DNA of 17,561 nt from Methanocella sp. (GTDB lineage: Archaea > Thermoproteota > Bathyarchaeia > Bathyarchaeales > Bathycorpusculaceae). Shown one piece after another: positions 1 through 15,397 of this stretch. The translations under genes were made by a program, and so were the position numbers. Numbering within the stretch: position 1 is the stretch's first letter; every line of letters starts with the position of its first letter. A model generated the notes under the pieces. It was given only the letters and a program-made list of their open reading frames with translations, was not told where the DNA came from and did no database searches. The DNA is taken from contig JBLNCY010000040.1 in the NCBI GenBank assembly GCA_050261115.1, positions 1 to 17,561 on the forward strand, written 5' to 3'.

Positions 1-2
1 CA

Positions 3-1034
3 GATGCAAAAGCTAATCCCAAATAAAGGGAATTGAAAGGGTGTATCTTTGCAGGTTCCGTTGCAGAGTGAAGTTCAAGATGCAAAAGCTAATCCCAAAT
101 AAAGGGAATTGAAAGCCTGCACGTTGAATGCTACGCACACGAGAAGGCGTATCCAGATGCAAAAGCTAATCCCAAATAAAGGGAATTGAAAGGGGTAGTA
201 TTTGCCGTTGAAAACTTTTGGCTTTGGATGTGATGCAAAAGCTAATCCCAAATAAAGGGAATTGAAAGTGAGTAAACCAGGCATCCTTAAGCTGTTCCTC
301 ATGGTCTATGATGCAAAAGCTAATCCCAAATAAAGGGAATTGAAAGTTTTTTGCCTGACATTTTCCACGGATCAGCCAGCGCACGATGCAAAAGCTAATC
401 CCAAATAAAGGGAATTGAAAGATTTATCGACAATATCAACAGGGGGAGAATAACCCAGCAGATGCAAAAGCTAATCCCAAATAAAGGGAATTGAAAGTCT
501 TAACCTTGGTCCAATCAAATCCATCTTGCACAATAGATGCAAAAGCTAATCCCAAATAAAGGGAATTGAAAGAAAATATACCCAGCGCTAAAGGCCGACT
601 GTGAAGCATACATGAAGATGCAAAAGCTAATCCCAAATAAAGGGAATTGAAAGTGAGATTAATTTTGTTAATTGACTTCTAAAATCGAAGTAAGATGCAA
701 AAGCTAATCCCAAATAAAGGGAATTGAAAGTTTGTTTGCATCAAAACTTATTTTCCTCCATCATTATCGGATGCAAAAGCTAATCCCAAATAAAGGGAAT
801 TGAAAGAGTCGGATTCGACGCACGCAAAACACCGATGCGCTTCAAGATGCAAAAGCTAATCCCAAATAAAGGGAATTGAAAGAGGTTCACTGATTCACAG
901 AAGTCATCAACAACCGTCTTTGGATGCAAAAGCTAATCCCAAATAAAGGGAATTGAAAGGTAAAGAAGACAGTGGTTGTCGGCACCTATCTCAAGATGAT
1001 GCAAAAGCTAATCCCAAATAAATGGATTAAGCCA
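3..1034 (+). CRISPR. CRISPR array, trailer end; 37-bp repeat GATGCAAAAGCTAATCCCAAATAAAGGGAATTGAAAG; 14 repeats and 13 spacers of 38-44 bp; probably continues beyond the left edge
   Basis: Identical repeats start at 3, 79, 156, 232, 310, 385, 461, 536, 617, 694, 770, 846 and 923. The last copy at 998 matches the first 25 nt, then degenerates (TGGATTAAGCCA), marking the leader-distal end. The 3' ATTGAAAG and the TCCC-AAATAAA-GGGA hairpin are typical of Cas6-processed class 1 repeats and orient the array on +. Confidence 0.98.
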
Positions 1035-1069
1035 GGATGTCGGTGCTCATCATTTAATGTATGCGTATA

Positions 1070-6307: not shown

Positions 6308-7138
6308 ATGCAGCAGCTAGATTCAAAGCTTGAGGAACTCAAAAAATTCATCCTACAGAAAGGCCAGGGCGGCGTGGTTATTGCGTTTAGTGGCGGGGTG
6401 GATAGCACAACACTTGCCGCCATCACCTACCAACTGCTTGGCGATAGGGCGGTTGCGGTTATAGCACAGTCCCCCACCTACACCCGCACGGAAATGCAGC
6501 AGGCCAAACAGGTCGCCCAAGAGATAGGTATCAAACTCTACGTCACCCTAACCGATGAACTAGACAACCCCCACTTCAACCAGAACCCCGAAAACCGATG
6601 CTACTACTGCAAAAAAGAACTCCTAACAAAACTAAAACAATTCGCCCACCAACATGGCTTTGGCGCAGTGTTTGAGGGCACCAACTACAGCGACCTAAGC
6701 GACCACCGCCCCGGATTTAAGGCAGTTGAGGAAACTGAGGGCGTCTATAGTCCCTGGGCTGCGATGGGGTTTAGCAAAGAAGAAGTGCGCCAAGTAGCCA
6801 AAGACATAGGCTTAACGGCGCATGACAAGCCTGCTTCGGCATGTCTTGCGTCCCGTATCCCCTTCAATGAATCCATAACCGCCGAGAAGCTGCGCCGCAT
6901 AGAAGAAGCCGAAAACGCGATTCGCAAACTGCTAGGCGTTAGGCAGTTGAGGGTTCGTGATCATAATGGGTTGGCTCGTATTGAAGTCGGCGCCGGCGAG
7001 CGGCACTTGTTCTTTAATGTCGATAAGTTGGATATGGTTGCTGCTAGGCTTAAGCGGTTGGGTTTTAGGTATGTGGCGTTGGATTTGGAGGGGTATCGGA
7101 GCGGTAGCATGCTGGATGGGCTAAAAAGAGACTCTTAG
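6308..7138 (+). CDS. larE: ATP-dependent sulfur insertase LarE (PP-loop)
   Basis: Motifs AFSGGVDST, NPENRCYYCK, EGTN.SD..DHRPG, SACLASRIP, LRVRDH...ARIE and DLEGYRSGS. Starts 2 bp after the larC stop. Confidence 0.95.
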   Translation: MQQLDSKLEELKKFILQKGQGGVVIAFSGGVDSTTLAAITYQLLGDRAVAVIAQSPTYTRTEMQQAKQVAQEIGIKLYVTLTDELDNPHFNQNPENRCYYCKKELLTKLKQFAHQHGFGAVFEGTNYSDLSDHRPGFKAVEETEGVYSPWAAMGFSKEEVRQVAKDIGLTAHDKPASACLASRIPFNESITAEKLRRIEEAENAIRKLLGVRQLRVRDHNGLARIEVGAGERHLFFNVDKLDMVAARLKRLGFRYVALDLEGYRSGSMLDGLKRDS

Positions 7139-7158
7139 ACGCCTCAACTGCGATACGG

Positions 7159-7175
7159 AAAACAAAGTTTGTTTT
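7159..7175. terminator. Palindromic A/T tract, possible bidirectional terminator between larE and the convergent ncRNA unit
   Basis: AAAACAAA-G-TTTGTTTT gives a T-rich tract on both strands, 20 bp after the larE stop. Confidence 0.4.
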
Positions 7176-7243
7176 GGGTCTGGAGGAAGCGGATTCTCTA
7201 CTCTGGGGAGTTTGCCATCTTAAAATTAGGTTTGAGAGAGGGT

Positions 7244-7391
7244 GCCGGGTTGAGTCTAAACCCCACATCAATCACTGGTCTTCTTTAGCACTTGACAAAG
7301 CCGTATCCATTTGATGTTATCTCTTGGACGGTCTTTAGCAGTTACCAAAGAGTCAACCTTGTGTTGTTGTGAAGCGTGTTCCTCAACCGGC
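7244..7391 (-). ncRNA. Candidate structured ncRNA copy 1; BHB motif enclosing a predicted 120-nt excised RNA (7256-7375)
   Basis: Minus strand: outer helix GGUUGAG/CUCAACC, 4-bp central helix GAAC/GUUU, 3-nt bulges ACG and AGA, inner helix CU(U)CACA/UGUGGG. Further internal stems UGGU/ACCA and AAAG(A)CCGU/ACGGCUUU. G-U pairs favour the minus strand. Confidence 0.65.
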
Positions 7392-7535
7392 AAACATTCT
7401 TTTCGTTGCATCGGATATATCGATATGTGACTGCAACCTGCTAGCAACAACCGCCCCGAAAGGTTAAGCGGTATCTGAACTGTAAAAAATTCAGCAATTT
7501 CAAAAGGGTCTGGCGGAGTGGTCGAGAAAAAGTTT

Positions 7536-7672
7536 GGGTTGAGTCTAAACCTCACCTTGCAGGTATTTGACCAGAGGTTCTTACCAAGACCATTCTTCGA
7601 ACACTCTAAGTTTGGTCTTTAATAGCTACCCATGGTCTATACATCTGCCATGTGAAGCCTGTTCCTCAACCC
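7536..7672 (-). ncRNA. Candidate structured ncRNA copy 2; BHB motif enclosing a predicted 114-nt excised RNA (7545-7658)
   Basis: Minus strand: GGGUUGAG/CUCAACCC, GAAC/GUUU, bulges AGG and AGA, inner helix CU(U)CAC/GUGAG. Internal stems GCAG/CUGC, GGUA/UACC and AAGACCA/UGGUCUU. Confidence 0.65.
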
Positions 7673-7739
7673 AGAACAATAAACCTCAACGATACCCTAT
7701 AATTTTATGTTGGTGACTCCAGTTAGCAACAACACACCC

Positions 7740-7752
7740 AAAAAACTTAAAG
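7740..7752 (+). promoter_or_regulatory. BRE/TATA of the tRNA-Leu gene (AAAAAACTTAAAG); may also serve the opposite-strand ncRNA unit
   Basis: A-rich BRE followed by CTTAAA about 33-38 bp upstream of the mature tRNA 5' end. Reads CTTTAAGT on the minus strand. Confidence 0.6.
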
Positions 7753-7783
7753 TGTAGCATGTTGACTCTATTCGGATGCTGGT

Positions 7784-7911
7784 GGCGGGGTATCCGAGCC
7801 AGGTCTAAATAGGTGGCCAGATACTAAACCAATTTGCCCCTAAGATATGGAGGAGGACTTAAGATCCTCTGGCGCAGGCCTTCGTGGGTTCAAGTCCCAC
7901 CCCCGCCACCA
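7784..7911 (+). tRNA. trnL: tRNA-Leu (anticodon UAA) with encoded CCA and a 40-nt intron (7809-7848) at position 22/23
   Basis: Acceptor GGCGGGG/CCCCGCC-A-CCA. Spliced D-arm TCCGAGCCAGGTCTAA|GGAG. Anticodon arm GAGGA-CTTAAGA-TCCTC. Long variable arm GGC-GCAG-GCC. T-arm GTGGG-TTCAAGT-CCCAC. Mature length 88 nt. Confidence 0.95.
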
Positions 7912-8020: not shown

Positions 8021-8659
8021 TTGACTCGTCTGATTGAATTTAACGAATTAACAGACGTCTCGTCATCGGCTTTCAGGGATGCCATGGATATCTATACAGA
8101 AGCGATACCCGCCGCAGAGAGGCAAAGTATTGATGCCATAACGGAGCGGATCAGCTTGGGCAAGGAACGACTCTATATTGGATGGGCAGAGGGAAAGGTA
8201 GTTTTTATGGCGCTTCTATTTCCGCTGGAAGACGCCCCGTTTGTTCTTCTGGATTATATGGCGGTCAAAACAGCTTATCGCAAAGGCGGTATCGGGTCAG
8301 ATTTCCTAAAAAACATCTACCGAATCACGGGCTATAAGAACGAACTTATCCTAATCGAGGTCGAAGACCCCAAATCAGGCCTTGACAAAGAGGCCAAACA
8401 GTGCCGGGTTTACTTCTACCGCAAGAACGGAGCAAAAATCCTCAAAAATGTACGCTATCTCTTGCCGCCTTTGCAGGGGAATTCGCCGACGGATATGCTT
8501 CTTTTAGTTTTGGCTAAAAAACAGCCTGTTTGGCTTTCTGGGGGCGCCGTTAAGGATGCGATTAGGCAAATTTATCGGGAGCTTTACTGCAGAGATGAGG
8601 GTGACTCTTTGTTGAGGTCGTTTATTGACGATGTGCCTCAGAAGGTGCAGTTGGGTTGA
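8021..8659 (+). CDS. GNAT-family N-acetyltransferase
   Basis: Motif A LLDYMAVKTAYRKGGIGS, then IEVE, FYRKNG and YLLPPL. N-terminal IYTEAIPAAER. TATA-like TTTTTAAA about 30 bp upstream. Confidence 0.85.
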   Translation: MTRLIEFNELTDVSSSAFRDAMDIYTEAIPAAERQSIDAITERISLGKERLYIGWAEGKVVFMALLFPLEDAPFVLLDYMAVKTAYRKGGIGSDFLKNIYRITGYKNELILIEVEDPKSGLDKEAKQCRVYFYRKNGAKILKNVRYLLPPLQGNSPTDMLLLVLAKKQPVWLSGGAVKDAIRQIYRELYCRDEGDSLLRSFIDDVPQKVQLG

Positions 8660-11098: not shown

Positions 11099-11191
11099 CT
11101 TCTTATTTATTCTCAGTCCCGATTTCTGATACAGTTGATTAATAAGCCCTAACCCCTATACGGTAGAGACCATTAATTGGGGAACACATAC

Positions 11192-14100
11192 ATGGGCAAT
11201 CCACTACGAAAGATCATAATCGTAATTCTAATCGCATCTCTTATCATGAGTAGTAACCTTGCAGCAGCCATAACCTTAACAGACGAAAGGCCTGCTGTCG
11301 GTCTCCAAACTGATCCGCCTCAATTAGACCTTGTCAACCTTGCATACACAGACTGCTTTACGGCGGATTGGAGCCCCAGCGCCCTAGCCGCCTACACCGA
11401 AGGCGCAGAAAATGTTGAAATCATCATCGGCCTAGACGGCAATCCCCAGAGCCAAACGGGAGTAGCGGCTTATGCAGCTCAAAACGGCGGCCGCATAATC
11501 AACACACTTTCTATGGGTTCTAAGAGCGCCGTCGTTGTTAGCATACCCGTAAATGCTGTAGCCTCTTTCGTTGCTGCTGTTCAGGGTTCTGGATTATCTC
11601 GTTATGTTGAGATAAACGGCGAGTGTCATGTTTACTCTATGCCCAATGACCCCTATTGGAATCAACAGTGGGGTACCCAGCGAATCGGCGCCGACTATGC
11701 CTGGAATACCACGGTCGGCAGCGAGGATCTTGTGGTTGCCGTTATAGATACCGGTATTGACTATTACCACACAGACCTTGCCGATTGCTACATAGGTGGC
11801 TATGACTTCGTAAATGATGACCCATTCCCTCTTGATGATAATGGTCACGGAACCCATTGCGCTGGTATACTCGCCGCCACCATGAACAACGCCGAAGGCA
11901 TTGCAGGAGTTGCCCAGGTGAAGATAATGGCTCTAAAAGGTCTCGGTGCATCGGGGTCAGGTTCATTTGTTGCTCTTGCTCAATGTTTAATTTATGCCAC
12001 CGATGCGGGTGCCCGCATCTTAAGTAACAGCTGGGGCAGCAGCAATTGGGGCGCTTTAACAAACGGTTACCTAATATCAGACGCAATCGAGTACGCAACC
12101 TCTCAGGGCGTTTTAGTCTTGGCATCCGCCGGAAACGACAACCTGAACAAAAATGTGTTTCCTGCAATGGATAGCAATGTGGTCGCAGTTGCCGCAACCA
12201 ACAGAAGTGATACGAAAGCCTCCTTTAGCAACTATGGGGATTGGGTAGACGTCGCCGCACCCGGTGTAGATATCATGTCAACCTTCCCCACCTATCAAGT
12301 TACCCTAAACGACCGACCGGGTTATGAAACGACTAGGAATTATGCATCTTTTAGCGGTACTTCTATGGCTTGCCCCATGGCGGCGGGCGTCGCAGCCCTA
12401 ATCTGGAGCACATACCCCCAGATGGATGCAGAAGCAGTCCGAAATCATCTGGAAGCAACCTGTGACGACGTAGGCGAGGTCGGCTTTGACATCTATTTCG
12501 GACATGGCATAGTTAACGCTTCAAGAGCGGTAACTCAGTTGCCGGTTCAGCATGACTTAGTCGCTCGGAGCTGGATTAAGCCATCTTGTGCTATGCTTAA
12601 TGAAGCGGCGGCGTTCACTTTGACCGTGGCTAATCGAGGCGCCCAAGACGAGACCGACGCTGAGGTTAGGTTAGTGGTGAATGATACGGTGGTGGATTCC
12701 ACTGTAATAGCGTCTTTGTCTTGCTATACCTCTAGTAGCATTATGCTCTCTTGGACACCAACCGAAACTGGAACCTACAACGTAACTTATATTGTCACCC
12801 CCAGTTCAGGTGAAACTGACCTCTCTAACAACGAGTTATCAGCCGTTTACACTGTTGTGGTATCGCCAAGCGAAGACAATTGGACACTACTAGCCAATAA
12901 TACTGATTCAGGCGTGGGTTGTGGTCTTAAAGAGGCATATAGTCAACTTGACGATGGTGTTGTCTTCTTAAAAGTAGCTTTTTACCGTAACTGGAACATA
13001 GCATCTCAAGCCATAGATGCATGGGTATTGATTGATTCAGATCAGAATTCCCGTACTGGTATACCTCTAAACGCCTACCCTGGCCAAGAAGACTGCCTTG
13101 GCGTCGATTACATGATTCTAGTCGGCATTGAGGGCAATGAAATCTTGCGGTGGAATACCACTGAGCGATCCTGGGATAGTAACAGTTTGCAGCTGCTCTA
13201 TCTAGACGCTCCAAACAACACCAATACCTATGTTGTTGGAGTTGCTGCTGAGGACATTGAGGTTGCTGATTCTTTTGATTGTTCGTTTGTCGAGGTCACA
13301 GTTCTCTTTATGCCGTCCTATATCTGGACCTACTGGAACTGGATGCCGACCTCAGGTTATGTGCCGTTTAGTCCACAACGCAACCAACATGACTTAGCGG
13401 TAACCCTTGAAACCAATAATATCTATGCTCCCAATGCATCCTACACGGTGACTGCTACAGTCTACAATTTAGGGCAATCAAATGAATCCAACGTAAACCT
13501 AGAGTTGTTCGTAGACGGTCAAGTGGTTAATAGTACTACATTCCCAAGCATAAGTAGTAGCGGATATGGTAAACTAACGTATGCCTGGAACGCCACCAAG
13601 GGCTATTATAACATAACTGCCTATGCCGCTTCGGTGGATGATGAAGCAACAGTCCAAAATAACGTTCGAACAAGGTTTGTTTCCGTTACCCCAAAAATAG
13701 CCGTTATTTCCGATAACGATGAGCTCTGGGAAATCTTAACAATCCTTGAAAGCATGAGCGTCAACTATGGCTATGGATACGATAACTCCCATATGCGCTA
13801 TACAGCTTACCCTGATTTGCTGAGTCAGTACCCCCTTATAATTTACTTTAACACCCATGACATATCGTCTACGGAAAAGGCTGTGTTAAACCAGTATTTG
13901 GCTAACGGCGGTAAACTCATCGTTACAGGCAGCAACGCGCTGGCTAATCCAGAAGCTCGTCTCGGCGAAGTTGTAAGAGCGATTTCAAGCGGGGACGACA
14001 TAAACCAACCTGACCTGCATGTAATGAACGCGTCTCATCCCATAATGAACGGCCCATACGGTAAATTCGCCCAAGGCTACTGCGTCTCAGACCTAAACCC

Positions 14101-15397
14101 CGACAATGACGCCGTAATAGCAGACACCGCAAAAAACGCCGTTTCCATCGCAAAATTAGCTGACGGTAAAGACAAAATCATAGTTACAGACAACCTCCCC
14201 GGCACCGTTATCTTCTGGAACGGCATCGCAATAGAGGACTGGCTATACAACCCCGACTGCCAAGCTATATTCAAAAATATGCTGATTTGGCTCCTAGGCT
14301 CCACAGGGCCATCTACCACATCAGACTATGACGGCGCATGGCATACTACTGATTTTACAATCAATCTCTCTGCAAACAGTGAATTGGGGGTTGTCGGGAC
14401 TCATTACCGGATAAACGAGGCTGCTACTAGAGTCGTCAGTTTGGATGGTCAACCCCACATCACCGCTGAGAGCGCCAATAATACCTTAGAGTACTGGAGC
14501 ACCGACGTTTATGGTTACCAAGAAAAGCATCATTACCTTACAGGTATCAAGCTGGATAAAACTGCACCTACTGCAAATGTAGGCGATAACCAAACAATCA
14601 CAATTACCGAGGACAATACTGTTACATTCAATGGTAGCGGCAGCACTGACAATTTAGGCATAGTATTTTACTCATGGAACTTTGGAAGTGGAACTGAAGT
14701 ACAAGGCATGACAGTTAACCACACCTACAACAGCACAGGCACATACACAGTAACATTAACAGTAGCCGATGCAGCCGGAAATACAGACCAAGCGTCAGTA
14801 ACGGTTTATGTTATCGAAAAACCTTCCCCAACGCCAGCGCCGACCCCTACTTCAATGCCAACTCCAACTAAATCAGCTACGACTCCAACGCCGACAATTA
14901 AACCCACCATAGCCCCAACTCCAATGCCGACCCCAACTTCTGCCCCCAATACCATACCCGTAACAGTTGACAACGACCAAACCGTGCAACTCTCAATAAG
15001 TGGAAACATAACCGCCACCCAAATAACCAACGCAACAATCCACCTAAACCAAACCGCCGCAACAACAACCATACGCTTTAGGGTTACAGGCGAGAGCGGC
15101 ACCACTGGGTTTGGAAACTTAACCGTACCTAAAAGCCAAGTGCCGCTTGGGTCTTCGCCTGTAATCTACATAGACGGTGAACCAGCAGAGAATCAAGGCT
15201 TCACAGAGGACGCAAACAACTACTATGTCTGGTATATGGTGCACTTTAGTACGCATGAATTATCGATTGTCTTTGTGGGTGCTTCTGTGGTTAATGCGTC
15301 GGCCGATTATACGGTTTGGATTGCGTTAGCTGTGGTTGCTTTGATTGTTTGTGTGGTTGCTGTTTTGTTGTTTAAGCGGCGAAGTTCCGCTTTCTAA
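11192..15397 (+). CDS. Secreted, C-terminally membrane-anchored S8 (subtilisin-like) serine protease with CARDB-like Ig domains, a PKD domain and a Pro/Thr linker
   Basis: Signal peptide and prodomain. Catalytic VAVIDTG, NGHGTHCAG and GTSMACP, oxyanion AGND. Two CARDB-like repeats (HDLV/HDLAV...TV.N.G..E.....L.V....V...NN). PKD domain (WNFGSG..HTY..GTY.VTLTV.D). PT repeats, then a C-terminal TM helix followed by KRR. Confidence 0.95.
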   Translation: MGNPLRKIIIVILIASLIMSSNLAAAITLTDERPAVGLQTDPPQLDLVNLAYTDCFTADWSPSALAAYTEGAENVEIIIGLDGNPQSQTGVAAYAAQNGGRIINTLSMGSKSAVVVSIPVNAVASFVAAVQGSGLSRYVEINGECHVYSMPNDPYWNQQWGTQRIGADYAWNTTVGSEDLVVAVIDTGIDYYHTDLADCYIGGYDFVNDDPFPLDDNGHGTHCAGILAATMNNAEGIAGVAQVKIMALKGLGASGSGSFVALAQCLIYATDAGARILSNSWGSSNWGALTNGYLISDAIEYATSQGVLVLASAGNDNLNKNVFPAMDSNVVAVAATNRSDTKASFSNYGDWVDVAAPGVDIMSTFPTYQVTLNDRPGYETTRNYASFSGTSMACPMAAGVAALIWSTYPQMDAEAVRNHLEATCDDVGEVGFDIYFGHGIVNASRAVTQLPVQHDLVARSWIKPSCAMLNEAAAFTLTVANRGAQDETDAEVRLVVNDTVVDSTVIASLSCYTSSSIMLSWTPTETGTYNVTYIVTPSSGETDLSNNELSAVYTVVVSPSEDNWTLLANNTDSGVGCGLKEAYSQLDDGVVFLKVAFYRNWNIASQAIDAWVLIDSDQNSRTGIPLNAYPGQEDCLGVDYMILVGIEGNEILRWNTTERSWDSNSLQLLYLDAPNNTNTYVVGVAAEDIEVADSFDCSFVEVTVLFMPSYIWTYWNWMPTSGYVPFSPQRNQHDLAVTLETNNIYAPNASYTVTATVYNLGQSNESNVNLELFVDGQVVNSTTFPSISSSGYGKLTYAWNATKGYYNITAYAASVDDEATVQNNVRTRFVSVTPKIAVISDNDELWEILTILESMSVNYGYGYDNSHMRYTAYPDLLSQYPLIIYFNTHDISSTEKAVLNQYLANGGKLIVTGSNALANPEARLGEVVRAISSGDDINQPDLHVMNASHPIMNGPYGKFAQGYCVSDLNPDNDAVIADTAKNAVSIAKLADGKDKIIVTDNLPGTVIFWNGIAIEDWLYNPDCQAIFKNMLIWLLGSTGPSTTSDYDGAWHTTDFTINLSANSELGVVGTHYRINEAATRVVSLDGQPHITAESANNTLEYWSTDVYGYQEKHHYLTGIKLDKTAPTANVGDNQTITITEDNTVTFNGSGSTDNLGIVFYSWNFGSGTEVQGMTVNHTYNSTGTYTVTLTVADAAGNTDQASVTVYVIEKPSPTPAPTPTSMPTPTKSATTPTPTIKPTIAPTPMPTPTSAPNTIPVTVDNDQTVQLSISGNITATQITNATIHLNQTAATTTIRFRVTGESGTTGFGNLTVPKSQVPLGSSPVIYIDGEPAENQGFTEDANNYYVWYMVHFSTHELSIVFVGASVVNASADYTVWIALAVVALIVCVVAVLLFKRRSSAF
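14822..14948 (+). repeat. Coding low-complexity Pro/Thr repeat (linker of the protease)
   Basis: Encodes PSPTPAPTPTSMPTPTKSATTPTPTIKPTIAPTPMPTPTSAP. Confidence 0.85.

Follow-up and report, generated by a model that had tools for sequence, protein, structure and literature searches.

Two adjacent stand-alone genes in a Bathyarchaeia genome very probably make small circular RNAs as their main product

The archaeal tRNA-splicing enzymes are known to produce circular RNAs out of several sources: the introns of tRNAs, the precursors of rRNAs, a single rearranged SRP RNA and a single mRNA leader. The SRP RNA is that of Thermoproteus tenax, which is permuted and circular (Plagens et al. 2015, PMC4731332). 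As the available text of that paper presents it, it resembles what we propose for the two units described here: a non-coding RNA gene stands alone, the tRNA-splicing endonuclease cuts its transcript, and ligation yields a stable circle (PMC4731332). In T. tenax the circle is the functional product, and it is a rearranged universal RNA in which circularisation repairs the permutation. The units differ from this case, so far as that text describes it, in that their source genome has a normal SRP RNA, that they match no Rfam family and that they have several paralogues.

The circular pre-16S/pre-23S and 23S rRNAs also resemble the units, in the sections of the reports available to us, in carrying the motif called bulge-helix-bulge (BHB) in the processing helix, with cleavage by EndA, ligation by RtcB and a circle as the outcome (PMC12918454, PMC7714728). 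There, according to the same sections, the helices flank the rRNAs inside an operon, whereas in the units a 10-bp helix surrounds an RNA of 97-200 nt that has its own gene, and the units show no sign of re-linearisation. Excised tRNA introns (for example, the C/D-box intron of tRNA-Trp and the metazoan tricRNAs), as described in the accessible parts of PMC12558985 and PMC4536317, share with the units the cut sites, the geometry and the circular form of the excised piece. The likeness extends to the ligated flanks of the units, which would form a hairpin with a 7-nt loop and with the joint after loop base 6, as for a canonical 37/38 intron. However, the units have no surrounding tRNA and no C/D boxes, they have a promoter of their own and their interior is conserved as a rod. 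The 'anticodon-like' loop also has an A at the position of tRNA U33. Finally, Haloferax volcanii HVO_1309 has in its 5' UTR a BHB intron that came to light through its circular product and that, in the available text, resembles the units in being a substrate outside tRNA and rRNA (Schwarz et al. 2020, PMC7714728). That intron, of 46 nt, lies in an mRNA leader, and its removal is thought there to act on the mRNA, while the flanks of the units have no gene attached.

The units lie in a stretch of 17,561 nucleotides from Methanocella sp. (GTDB class Bathyarchaeia; assembly GCA_050261115.1, contig JBLNCY010000040.1), which is called the window below. Both are on the minus strand, unit A at 7535-7675 and unit B at 7243-7392, between larE (6308-7138, plus strand) on one side and a GNAT gene (8021-8659, plus strand) on the other. 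Each is predicted to fold as a long rod closed by a helix-bulge-helix-bulge-helix (hBHBh') motif with 3-4-3 geometry. The 5' side reads, in order, GGUUGAG, GAAC, the three bulge bases ACG (unit B) or AGG (unit A) and CUUCAC, and the 3' side reads GUGRG, GUUU, AGA and CUCAACC; the inner helix CUUCAC/GUGRG has a single bulged U in both units. This agrees with the definition of an hBHBh' motif, with 3-nt bulges on opposite strands, a 4-bp helix between them and helices on either flank. An earlier note, made from the sequence alone, had described these helices and bulges, including the one-base bulge of the inner helix, and all are present on the minus strand. It had also stated that the motif nucleotides are the best conserved between the two copies. 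This too is borne out: identity between A and B is highest at the ends, where two stretches of 21 nt and 20 nt are 95% identical, and reaches at most 82% over 17 nt in the interior. The predicted folding energies are -52.0 kcal/mol for unit B (z -5.2) and -57.3 kcal/mol for unit A (z -6.6), and none of 200 shuffled sequences folds as well as either unit. Pfam has no match for either of the two small ORFs overlapping the units. The coordinates of all parts are collected in Table 1.

Table 1. Features of the two units in the window (promoter-like elements, 'exons' and excised segments), with the basis of each assignment
Feature	Position	Strand	Description	Basis
Unit A, promoter-like element	7697..7713	-	CCAACA...AAATTATAG, BRE/TATA-like, ~25-40 nt upstream of closing helix	
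Unit A, 5' 'exon'	7659..7672	-		Coordinates from motif patterns; cut 7659/7658 placed by joint (2-nt ambiguity)
Unit A, 5' 'exon': outer helix, 5' strand	7672-7665	-	GGGUUGAG	
Unit A, 5' 'exon': central helix	7664-7661	-	GAAC	
Unit A, 5' 'exon': bulge bases	7660-7659	-	AG	
Circle A	7545..7658	-	114-nt excised RNA, rod-like hairpin	Joint; fold z -6.6; R1 90.5 bits
Unit A, 3' 'exon'	7527..7544	-		Sequence read, motif pattern
Unit A, 3' 'exon': third bulge base	7544	-	A	
Unit A, 3' 'exon': outer helix, 3' strand	7543-7536	-	CUCAACCC	
Unit A, 3' 'exon': T-run	7531-7527	-		
Unit B, promoter-like element	7413..7429	-	CACATATCGATATATCC	Sequence read; likeness to family and 5S rRNA elements
Unit B, 5' 'exon'	7376..7392	-		Motif patterns; cut 7376/7375 fixed by joint
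Unit B, 5' 'exon': extended outer helix	7392-7382	-	UGCCGGUUGAG	
Unit B, 5' 'exon': central helix	7381-7378	-	GAAC	
Unit B, 5' 'exon': bulge bases	7377-7376	-	AC	
Circle B	7256..7375	-	120-nt excised RNA	Joint; fold z -5.2; R1 129.5 bits
Circle B, apical hairpin	7311-7323	-	GAGAUAACAUCAA, conserved in family	Motif location
Unit B, 3' 'exon'	7222..7255	-		Sequence read, motif pattern
Unit B, 3' 'exon': third bulge base	7255	-	A	
Unit B, 3' 'exon': outer helix, 3' strand	7254-7243	-	CUCAACCCGGCA	
Unit B, 3' 'exon': T-run	7225-7222	-		

The main evidence for circles comes from public RNA libraries. A search of public sequencing runs with positions 7150-7760 brought up 24 runs, each containing at most 0.49 of the sampled words; 22 are recorded as RNA. 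The joints were read from assembled contigs of four metatranscriptome runs of a similar kind, perhaps from one campaign; these contigs are strandless and do not give transcript ends. For unit B a permuted joint that leads from 7375 back 120 nt to 7256 is present in all four runs with zero positional ambiguity. For unit A the corresponding joint leads from 7658 back 114 nt to 7545 and is present in three of the four, with an ambiguity of 2 nt because the letters repeat. The contigs that carry the joints are 150 nt (B) and 144 nt (A) long, that is, circle length plus 30, and include no flanking sequence, which is what is expected for a circle in a k=31 graph. The contigs of the four runs are reported to contain no further joint in the 611-nt stretch 7150-7760, nor a hybrid of the 5' half of unit A with the 3' half of unit B, which would be conceivable given their similar ends. 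Parts of the stretch between and beside the units lack contig cover, and no weight is placed on these gaps.

The splicing endonuclease cuts a BHB motif after the second base of each bulge. In the 5' bulge the third base is at 7375 (B) or 7658 (A), and in the 3' bulge the second base is at 7256 (B) or 7545 (A), so that both cuts fall after the second bulge base. The earlier note had predicted exactly this, naming 7256-7375 and 7545-7658 as the segments that would be excised, of 120 and 114 nt, and suggesting that the back-splice joints be looked for in RNA reads. Both joints appear in the contigs at the predicted base. In one run (X5) the mean word depth is approximately 7,700-29,000 for the circle-only contigs of B, 703 for those of A and 5.5 for a contig of the flank; contig depth is a poor measure, and these values give no more than a hint that the circles are highly abundant. 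The flank contig covers 7150-7255, then runs into GGAACAC in reverse complement, the 7 nt with which the unit B 5' flank ends, and finally into Illumina adapter. This single contig, of depth 5.5 and with only 7 nt to one side of the junction, fits the ligated exons GGAACAC|ACUCAACC of unit B, the exon junction that had been proposed. After ligation the circle would present a 7-bp helix with a UUAG loop at the joint. This hairpin remains a prediction, for which RNAalifold chose on the alignment the same register as that first drawn from the two copies.

To place the units in a wider context, a covariance model (R1) was built from 15 units. It has exactly three matches in the source genome: units A and B and a third copy on the minus strand of another contig (C53), whose inner helix is compensatory and whose circle, applying the cut rule, would extend from 33083 to 32987. 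A half-site on contig C19, with one mismatch to the 3' motif, has neither a 5' partner nor an R1 match. In the genus, R1 matches were obtained in 78 of 101 sampled genomes including the source (77 of the 100 others), and in 52 of the 62 high-quality ones. They total 116, with one to three per genome; 12 of the 78 matching genomes have at least two copies within 5 kb, and in 7 of these the copies are within 700 nt. At the level of the GTDB family, 31 of 141 sampled genomes and 19 of 70 genera have matches (source counted; 30 of the 140 others), and most of the matches are of a 165-nt form. In a sample of the class (151 genomes), matches are confined to the GTDB family of the source except for one marginal partial match (E=0.008). 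The search with a covariance model that the earlier note had advised thus returned a family, and its suggestion of a dedicated circular non-coding RNA gene family is now supported both by a conserved gene family and by the joints in RNA contigs.

The geometry is retained throughout. The 3-4-3 arrangement, whose loss in homologues would have counted against the proposal, is kept in 58 of 59 distinct sequences, the only exception being an antisense false match. Among the 58, the central helix is GAAC/GUUU in 38, GAGC/GCUU in 10 and AAGC/GCUU in 7, while AACC/GGUU, GAAU/AUUU and GAAU/GUUU occur once each. The 5' bulge is NNG in 57 of them and the 3' bulge is AGA (52) or AGG (6). In an alignment of 52 rows, compensatory changes affect 9 of the 16 modelled pairs and involve all three helices. 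There, 98.4% of the cells are paired, a value reached by none of 500 shuffles and falling below 50% if the partner is shifted by one column; the alignments were fitted to the modelled structure, which inflates the percentage paired, although not the pair types of the central helix. Judged from the sequences, with covariation across these 58 distinct family members, the BHB motif of the units is not a chance feature.

Conservation is not restricted to the ends. The predicted rod fold is retained across family members of very different sequence, and in one subfamily the arms are almost invariant over 14 species. An apical hairpin of the form G-M-GAU-NNN-AUC-AA is present in 11 of 13 cross-genus members; unit B carries it, and unit A and the third copy (unit C) have diverged versions. 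In the 165-nt form an AACAGYUG element is found on each arm, and the two pair as a near-palindromic helix flanked by adenines. Within the genus the BHB ends are nearly invariant in sequence. This exceeds the need of EndA, which concerns structure only, and something else may therefore also read the ends.

The enzymes that would process such transcripts are encoded in the source genome. EndA is represented by two PF01974 matches on contig C10 (96 and 78.6 bits) and RtcB by one PF01139 match on contig C52 (595 bits). The two EndA paralogues suggest an enzyme of the heterotetrameric type, which is said, in the available text of PMC5829648, to accept non-canonical substrates. The processing stem of the 16S rRNA of the same genome has an hBHBh' motif of the same 3-4-3 geometry, whose 5' strand likewise runs from the outer helix through the 4-bp helix and the bulge to the inner helix. 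Taken with the cut sites and the geometry of the units, the presence of these genes argues strongly for processing by EndA and RtcB.

The units also appear to be equipped for independent transcription. The closing helix of each of the 15 first-found units is preceded, at approximately 25-45 nt, by a CAACA-N-TTATAT-type element and followed, after 5-40 nt, by a T-run. The same type of element precedes a 5S rRNA gene of the source genome. Oligo-T is a termination signal for the archaeal RNA polymerase, and the T-runs are probably terminators. From the position of the promoter-like element, the transcript should start at or just before the closing helix, leaving flanks of approximately 17 nt and 12-35 nt. 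Beyond the closing helix the sequence on the 3' side is not conserved. In one related genome (G090) two units abut under one promoter and in another (G046) they are 16 nt apart, which indicates that circles can also come from a polycistronic precursor. As to the neighbourhood, larB or larE lies beside the units in 12 of 24 related LarC loci, three genomes have units adjoining L14e-cbf5 and two other genera have them next to a GIY-YIG gene pair. No neighbour gene is common to all the loci examined, and none of these neighbourhoods is taken as a functional link.

A number of known identities were considered and rejected. An ARAGORN search of the whole window yields no tRNA. Rfam has no match in the window at the gathering score and none in 7150-7800 at E<=10; the comparison with Rfam had been proposed in the earlier note, whose view of the units as introns with no tRNA, rRNA or mRNA as host is supported. 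A tRNA intron was rejected, there being no tRNA around the units, whose flanks form a plain helix of 8-11 bp. An rRNA spacer was likewise rejected. A C/D box sRNA was rejected on the lack of a box pair in the alignments and of an Rfam match at E<=10, and the absence of C/D boxes had already been remarked in the earlier note. In the locus of one relative an sR42 match (E=4.8) lies outside the unit. An H/ACA sRNA was considered because the genes of three relatives adjoin L14e-cbf5; it was rejected since Rfam gives no match, the alignments show no K-turn that is consistent, and the circle has no 3' tail. K-turns within the rod were sought by eye in the GAUGA/CAACA and GGUG/UGACA regions and no arrangement is consistent across subfamilies. 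A permuted SRP RNA was rejected: a canonical Archaea_SRP is found on contig C16 (149 bits) and the unit contains no partial SRP match. Nor do the units substitute for another universal RNA, since the genome has its SRP RNA, 5S rRNA and RNase P RNA, each in normal form.

Other functions and origins were treated in the same way. For an antisense role, the complement of the apical motif has 11 exact 10-mers in approximately 4.3 Mb (both strands) against approximately 4 by chance and is not considered enriched, and blastn-short with the three circles against the genome gave a best E of 0.18 (the circle C query was 3 nt short at its 5' end). An endless reading frame was rejected: circle B, examined by eye, contains stops in each of the three frames, and multiples of three are not favoured among the circle lengths of the family. 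Virus-borne copies were also rejected: in IMG/VR, 78 loci have the 16-letter 5' motif (15 specified bases), and not one of them matches R1. The same pattern across the contig database falls mostly in bacterial records, as chance predicts for 15 specified bases.

Four other explanations have to be set against that of dedicated circle genes. In one, the circle is a by-product and the functional RNA consists of the ligated flanks, as a 10-11-bp hairpin with an invariant 7-nt loop (GAACACA/GAACAGA) and a 3' tail; in the window this RNA would extend, antisense, into larE at its 3' end. Conservation within the units is indeed highest in the flank sequences GGUUGAGGAAC and CUCAACC, the one contig of ligated flanks extends at least to 7150, approximately 12 nt from the larE stop at 7138, and in the 12 LarC loci mentioned above the units are convergent to larE or beside larB. 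However, the interior is also selected, as seen from the near-invariant arms of the 14 species, the apical hairpin shared between genera and a rod fold that is kept despite very different sequences. In addition, the word depth of the circle contigs is far above that of the flank-junction contig, many family members lie at other loci and the 3' sequence past the helix, from which such a tail would be made, is not conserved. We regard this explanation as unlikely, even if it is the least improbable of the four. Spread rather than function would account for the conservation if the units were copies of a mobile element (a MITE or a host-less mobile BHB intron). Inverted-repeat ends, one to three matches per genome, positions that vary among species (larB, larE, L14e-cbf5, the GIY-YIG pair) and the 12 of 78 genomes with at least two copies within 5 kb could all be read in this way. 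A unit is asymmetric, however, a promoter being on one flank and a T-run on the opposite one; copy number is low and old, diverged paralogues keep the fold; and none of the 78 IMG/VR loci is a real unit. Inspection by eye of 15 units shows no duplicated flanking bases, which, together with the few and diverged matches in each genome, answers the earlier note's suggestion that target-site duplications would reveal a MITE. A mobile element is thus very improbable.

Slightly less credence still is given to the view that no circular RNA exists and that the joints are artefacts of tandem DNA duplication, of template switching by reverse transcriptase or of de Bruijn loops. The evidence consists of contigs, and the unit arms and the ends shared by A and B are repeats able to confuse an assembler. 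Against this, two different units give joints precisely at both positions predicted from the BHB motif. The joint of unit B is unambiguous in all four runs, in contigs of exactly circle length plus 30 that lack flanks, and no other joint is reported in the 611-nt stretch; moreover, the copies in the genome assembly and in 78 related genomes are single and flanked. The least probable explanation, to which we give hardly any weight, is that the internal loop is a K-turn bound by L7Ae and that the RNA is linear and uncut, with a terminal stem, in the manner of a C/D box sRNA. The invariant letters can be drawn as a UUA bulge followed by a GA on the 3' strand that faces a GA on the 5' strand. Yet, according to the joints, the RNA is cut inside that loop, which contradicts an uncut form, and Rfam has no match, C/D or other. 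In 7 of the 58 sequences the 4-bp helix begins with an A, which would turn an A.G pair of the K-turn into A.A but a G.U pair of the BHB into A-U.

The explanation that we retain for the locus, and consider very probable, is therefore that of two adjacent stand-alone genes with a small circular RNA as their main product. In the scheme that we propose, each gene would have its own promoter and terminator, a point strongly indicated by the elements described above, and the primary transcript would consist of little beyond a long hairpin whose closing helix contains a canonical BHB motif. Two EndA paralogues, probably as a heterotetramer, would cut each 3-nt bulge behind its second base. RtcB would join the ends of the excised piece to give covalently closed rods of 120 nt and 114 nt. 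Each rod would be capped by the UUAG loop at the ligation joint and by the conserved apical hairpin at the other end. The two short flanks could also be ligated, giving a mini-hairpin with a 7-nt loop.

As to function, the conserved loops, internal loops and apical hairpin, the lack of extended complementarity and the closed rod point to a stable RNA to which protein binds, as a scaffold, decoy or sponge, rather than to a guide. Only tentatively do we propose that the circle is a stable, exonuclease-resistant scaffold or decoy, to which a protein would bind through the apical hairpin and the internal loops, and not an antisense guide. To judge from its sequence, the near-palindromic AACAGYUG helix of the 165-nt form would be an apt site for a dimeric protein.

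The mechanism of biogenesis is known; its use by a conserved family of stand-alone genes is new. The texts of the literature consulted, supplementary tables aside (and including PMC3326292, PMC12558985 and PMC12918454), describe no dedicated family of BHB-flanked circular-RNA genes and no circular small RNAs from Bathyarchaeia. Two practical consequences follow from the units themselves. Small circles can be mined from metatranscriptome assemblies as contigs of circle length plus k-1, and the units constitute a compact natural cassette for circular RNA expression, with 5' and 3' sides of approximately 17 nt and 12 nt. Such cassettes are now being engineered from archaeal BHB motifs, as the accessible text of one report describes (10.64898/2026.10.12.758436).

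The family is carried by no fewer than 19 genera of an uncultivated lineage that is common worldwide, and public metatranscriptomes show its joints. It lengthens the list of EndA and RtcB substrates and offers a testable case for the role of stable circular RNAs in prokaryotes. Here the tRNA-splicing enzymes appear to serve dedicated genes, with the circle itself as the product. It is quite possible that these organisms have a class of promoter-driven and sometimes polycistronic circle genes, which would serve solely to feed the tRNA-splicing enzymes; their abundant and long-lived rods would be part of a new ribonucleoprotein, in which a dimeric protein perhaps sits on the near-palindromic helix and the apical hairpin.

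Units of the circular RNA family recur around the lar cluster. Twelve of the 24 LarC loci extracted from related genomes (L030-L055) have one or two units within 3 kb of larC, and in all 12 the units lie on the strand opposite to larC. Because a unit stands just past larB in seven of the 24 loci and just past larE in nine, the cluster is a favoured site on both of its flanks. Elsewhere, three genomes from the genus carry the RNA gene beside cbf5 and the gene for ribosomal protein L14e; the corresponding locus of the source genome (G000) is without a unit. In two other genera (g22 and g18; loci L090 and L092), the 165-nt form, which is the main cross-genus form, is divergent to a conserved gene pair encoding an uncharacterised protein of 230-250 amino acids, with no match in Pfam, and a small GIY-YIG protein. 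The G000 copy of this pair has no adjoining unit.

Coordinates of the features discussed (C numbers are contigs, L numbers extracted loci)
Feature	Locus	Genome and position	Strand	Remarks
Units adjoining L14e-cbf5	L068, L087, L089	G019, G003, G013		
L14e-cbf5 locus		G000:C2:6518-7881		
GIY-YIG gene pair		G000:C35:2672-3618		
Two abutting units	L115	G090:C6:53350-53950	minus	
Two units 16 nt apart	L116	G046:C1:409950-410550	minus	
Deviant family member	L094	G041:C4:41545-41681	minus	44 bits
CRISPR-like array		window 1-1047	plus	14 repeat copies, ~37 nt each, spacing 75-81 nt
1406-aa ORF		window 11177-15397	plus	
Flanks of split 16S rRNA gene		G000:C18:68989-69199 and G000:C24:3320-3530		
225-227-nt RNA class	L095-L097, L101, L102	G112, G042, G080, G083, G085		
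Further member of 225-227-nt class		G009:C288:949-1175		

Units also occur in pairs. In both G090 and G046 a single promoter-like element lies upstream of two units, which implies a dicistronic precursor for two circles. The low-scoring member in G041 has a 5' side shortened by 2 nt compared with the rest of the family; the 3-4-3 structure can still be drawn in a shifted register (AACC/GGUU), and this may be a decaying copy.

The window itself carries two other features. The CRISPR-like array extends past the contig start and its last repeat copy is degenerate. Inspected by eye, the long ORF resembles a secreted protease of the subtilisin type that would have repeat domains, a linker rich in Pro and Thr, and a membrane anchor at its C-terminus.

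BHB motifs are not confined to the circle units. The 16S rRNA flanks in G000 pair into a long processing helix. It contains a clean hBHBh' in which GUUUCUCC/GGAGAAAC is the outer helix and CUCC/GGAG the central one, and the two bulges read AAA and CAA. One publication (PMC12918454) reports that circular 16S rRNA is absent from some Bathyarchaeia. A second kind of RNA, 225-227 nt long, shares the BHB ends of the circle units, with the central helix GAGC/GCUU, and matches no Rfam family. Its branched interior is very unlike that of the circle units and contains a hairpin whose 11-bp stem closes a 13-nt loop. This class is probably another RNA served by the same processing cassette.
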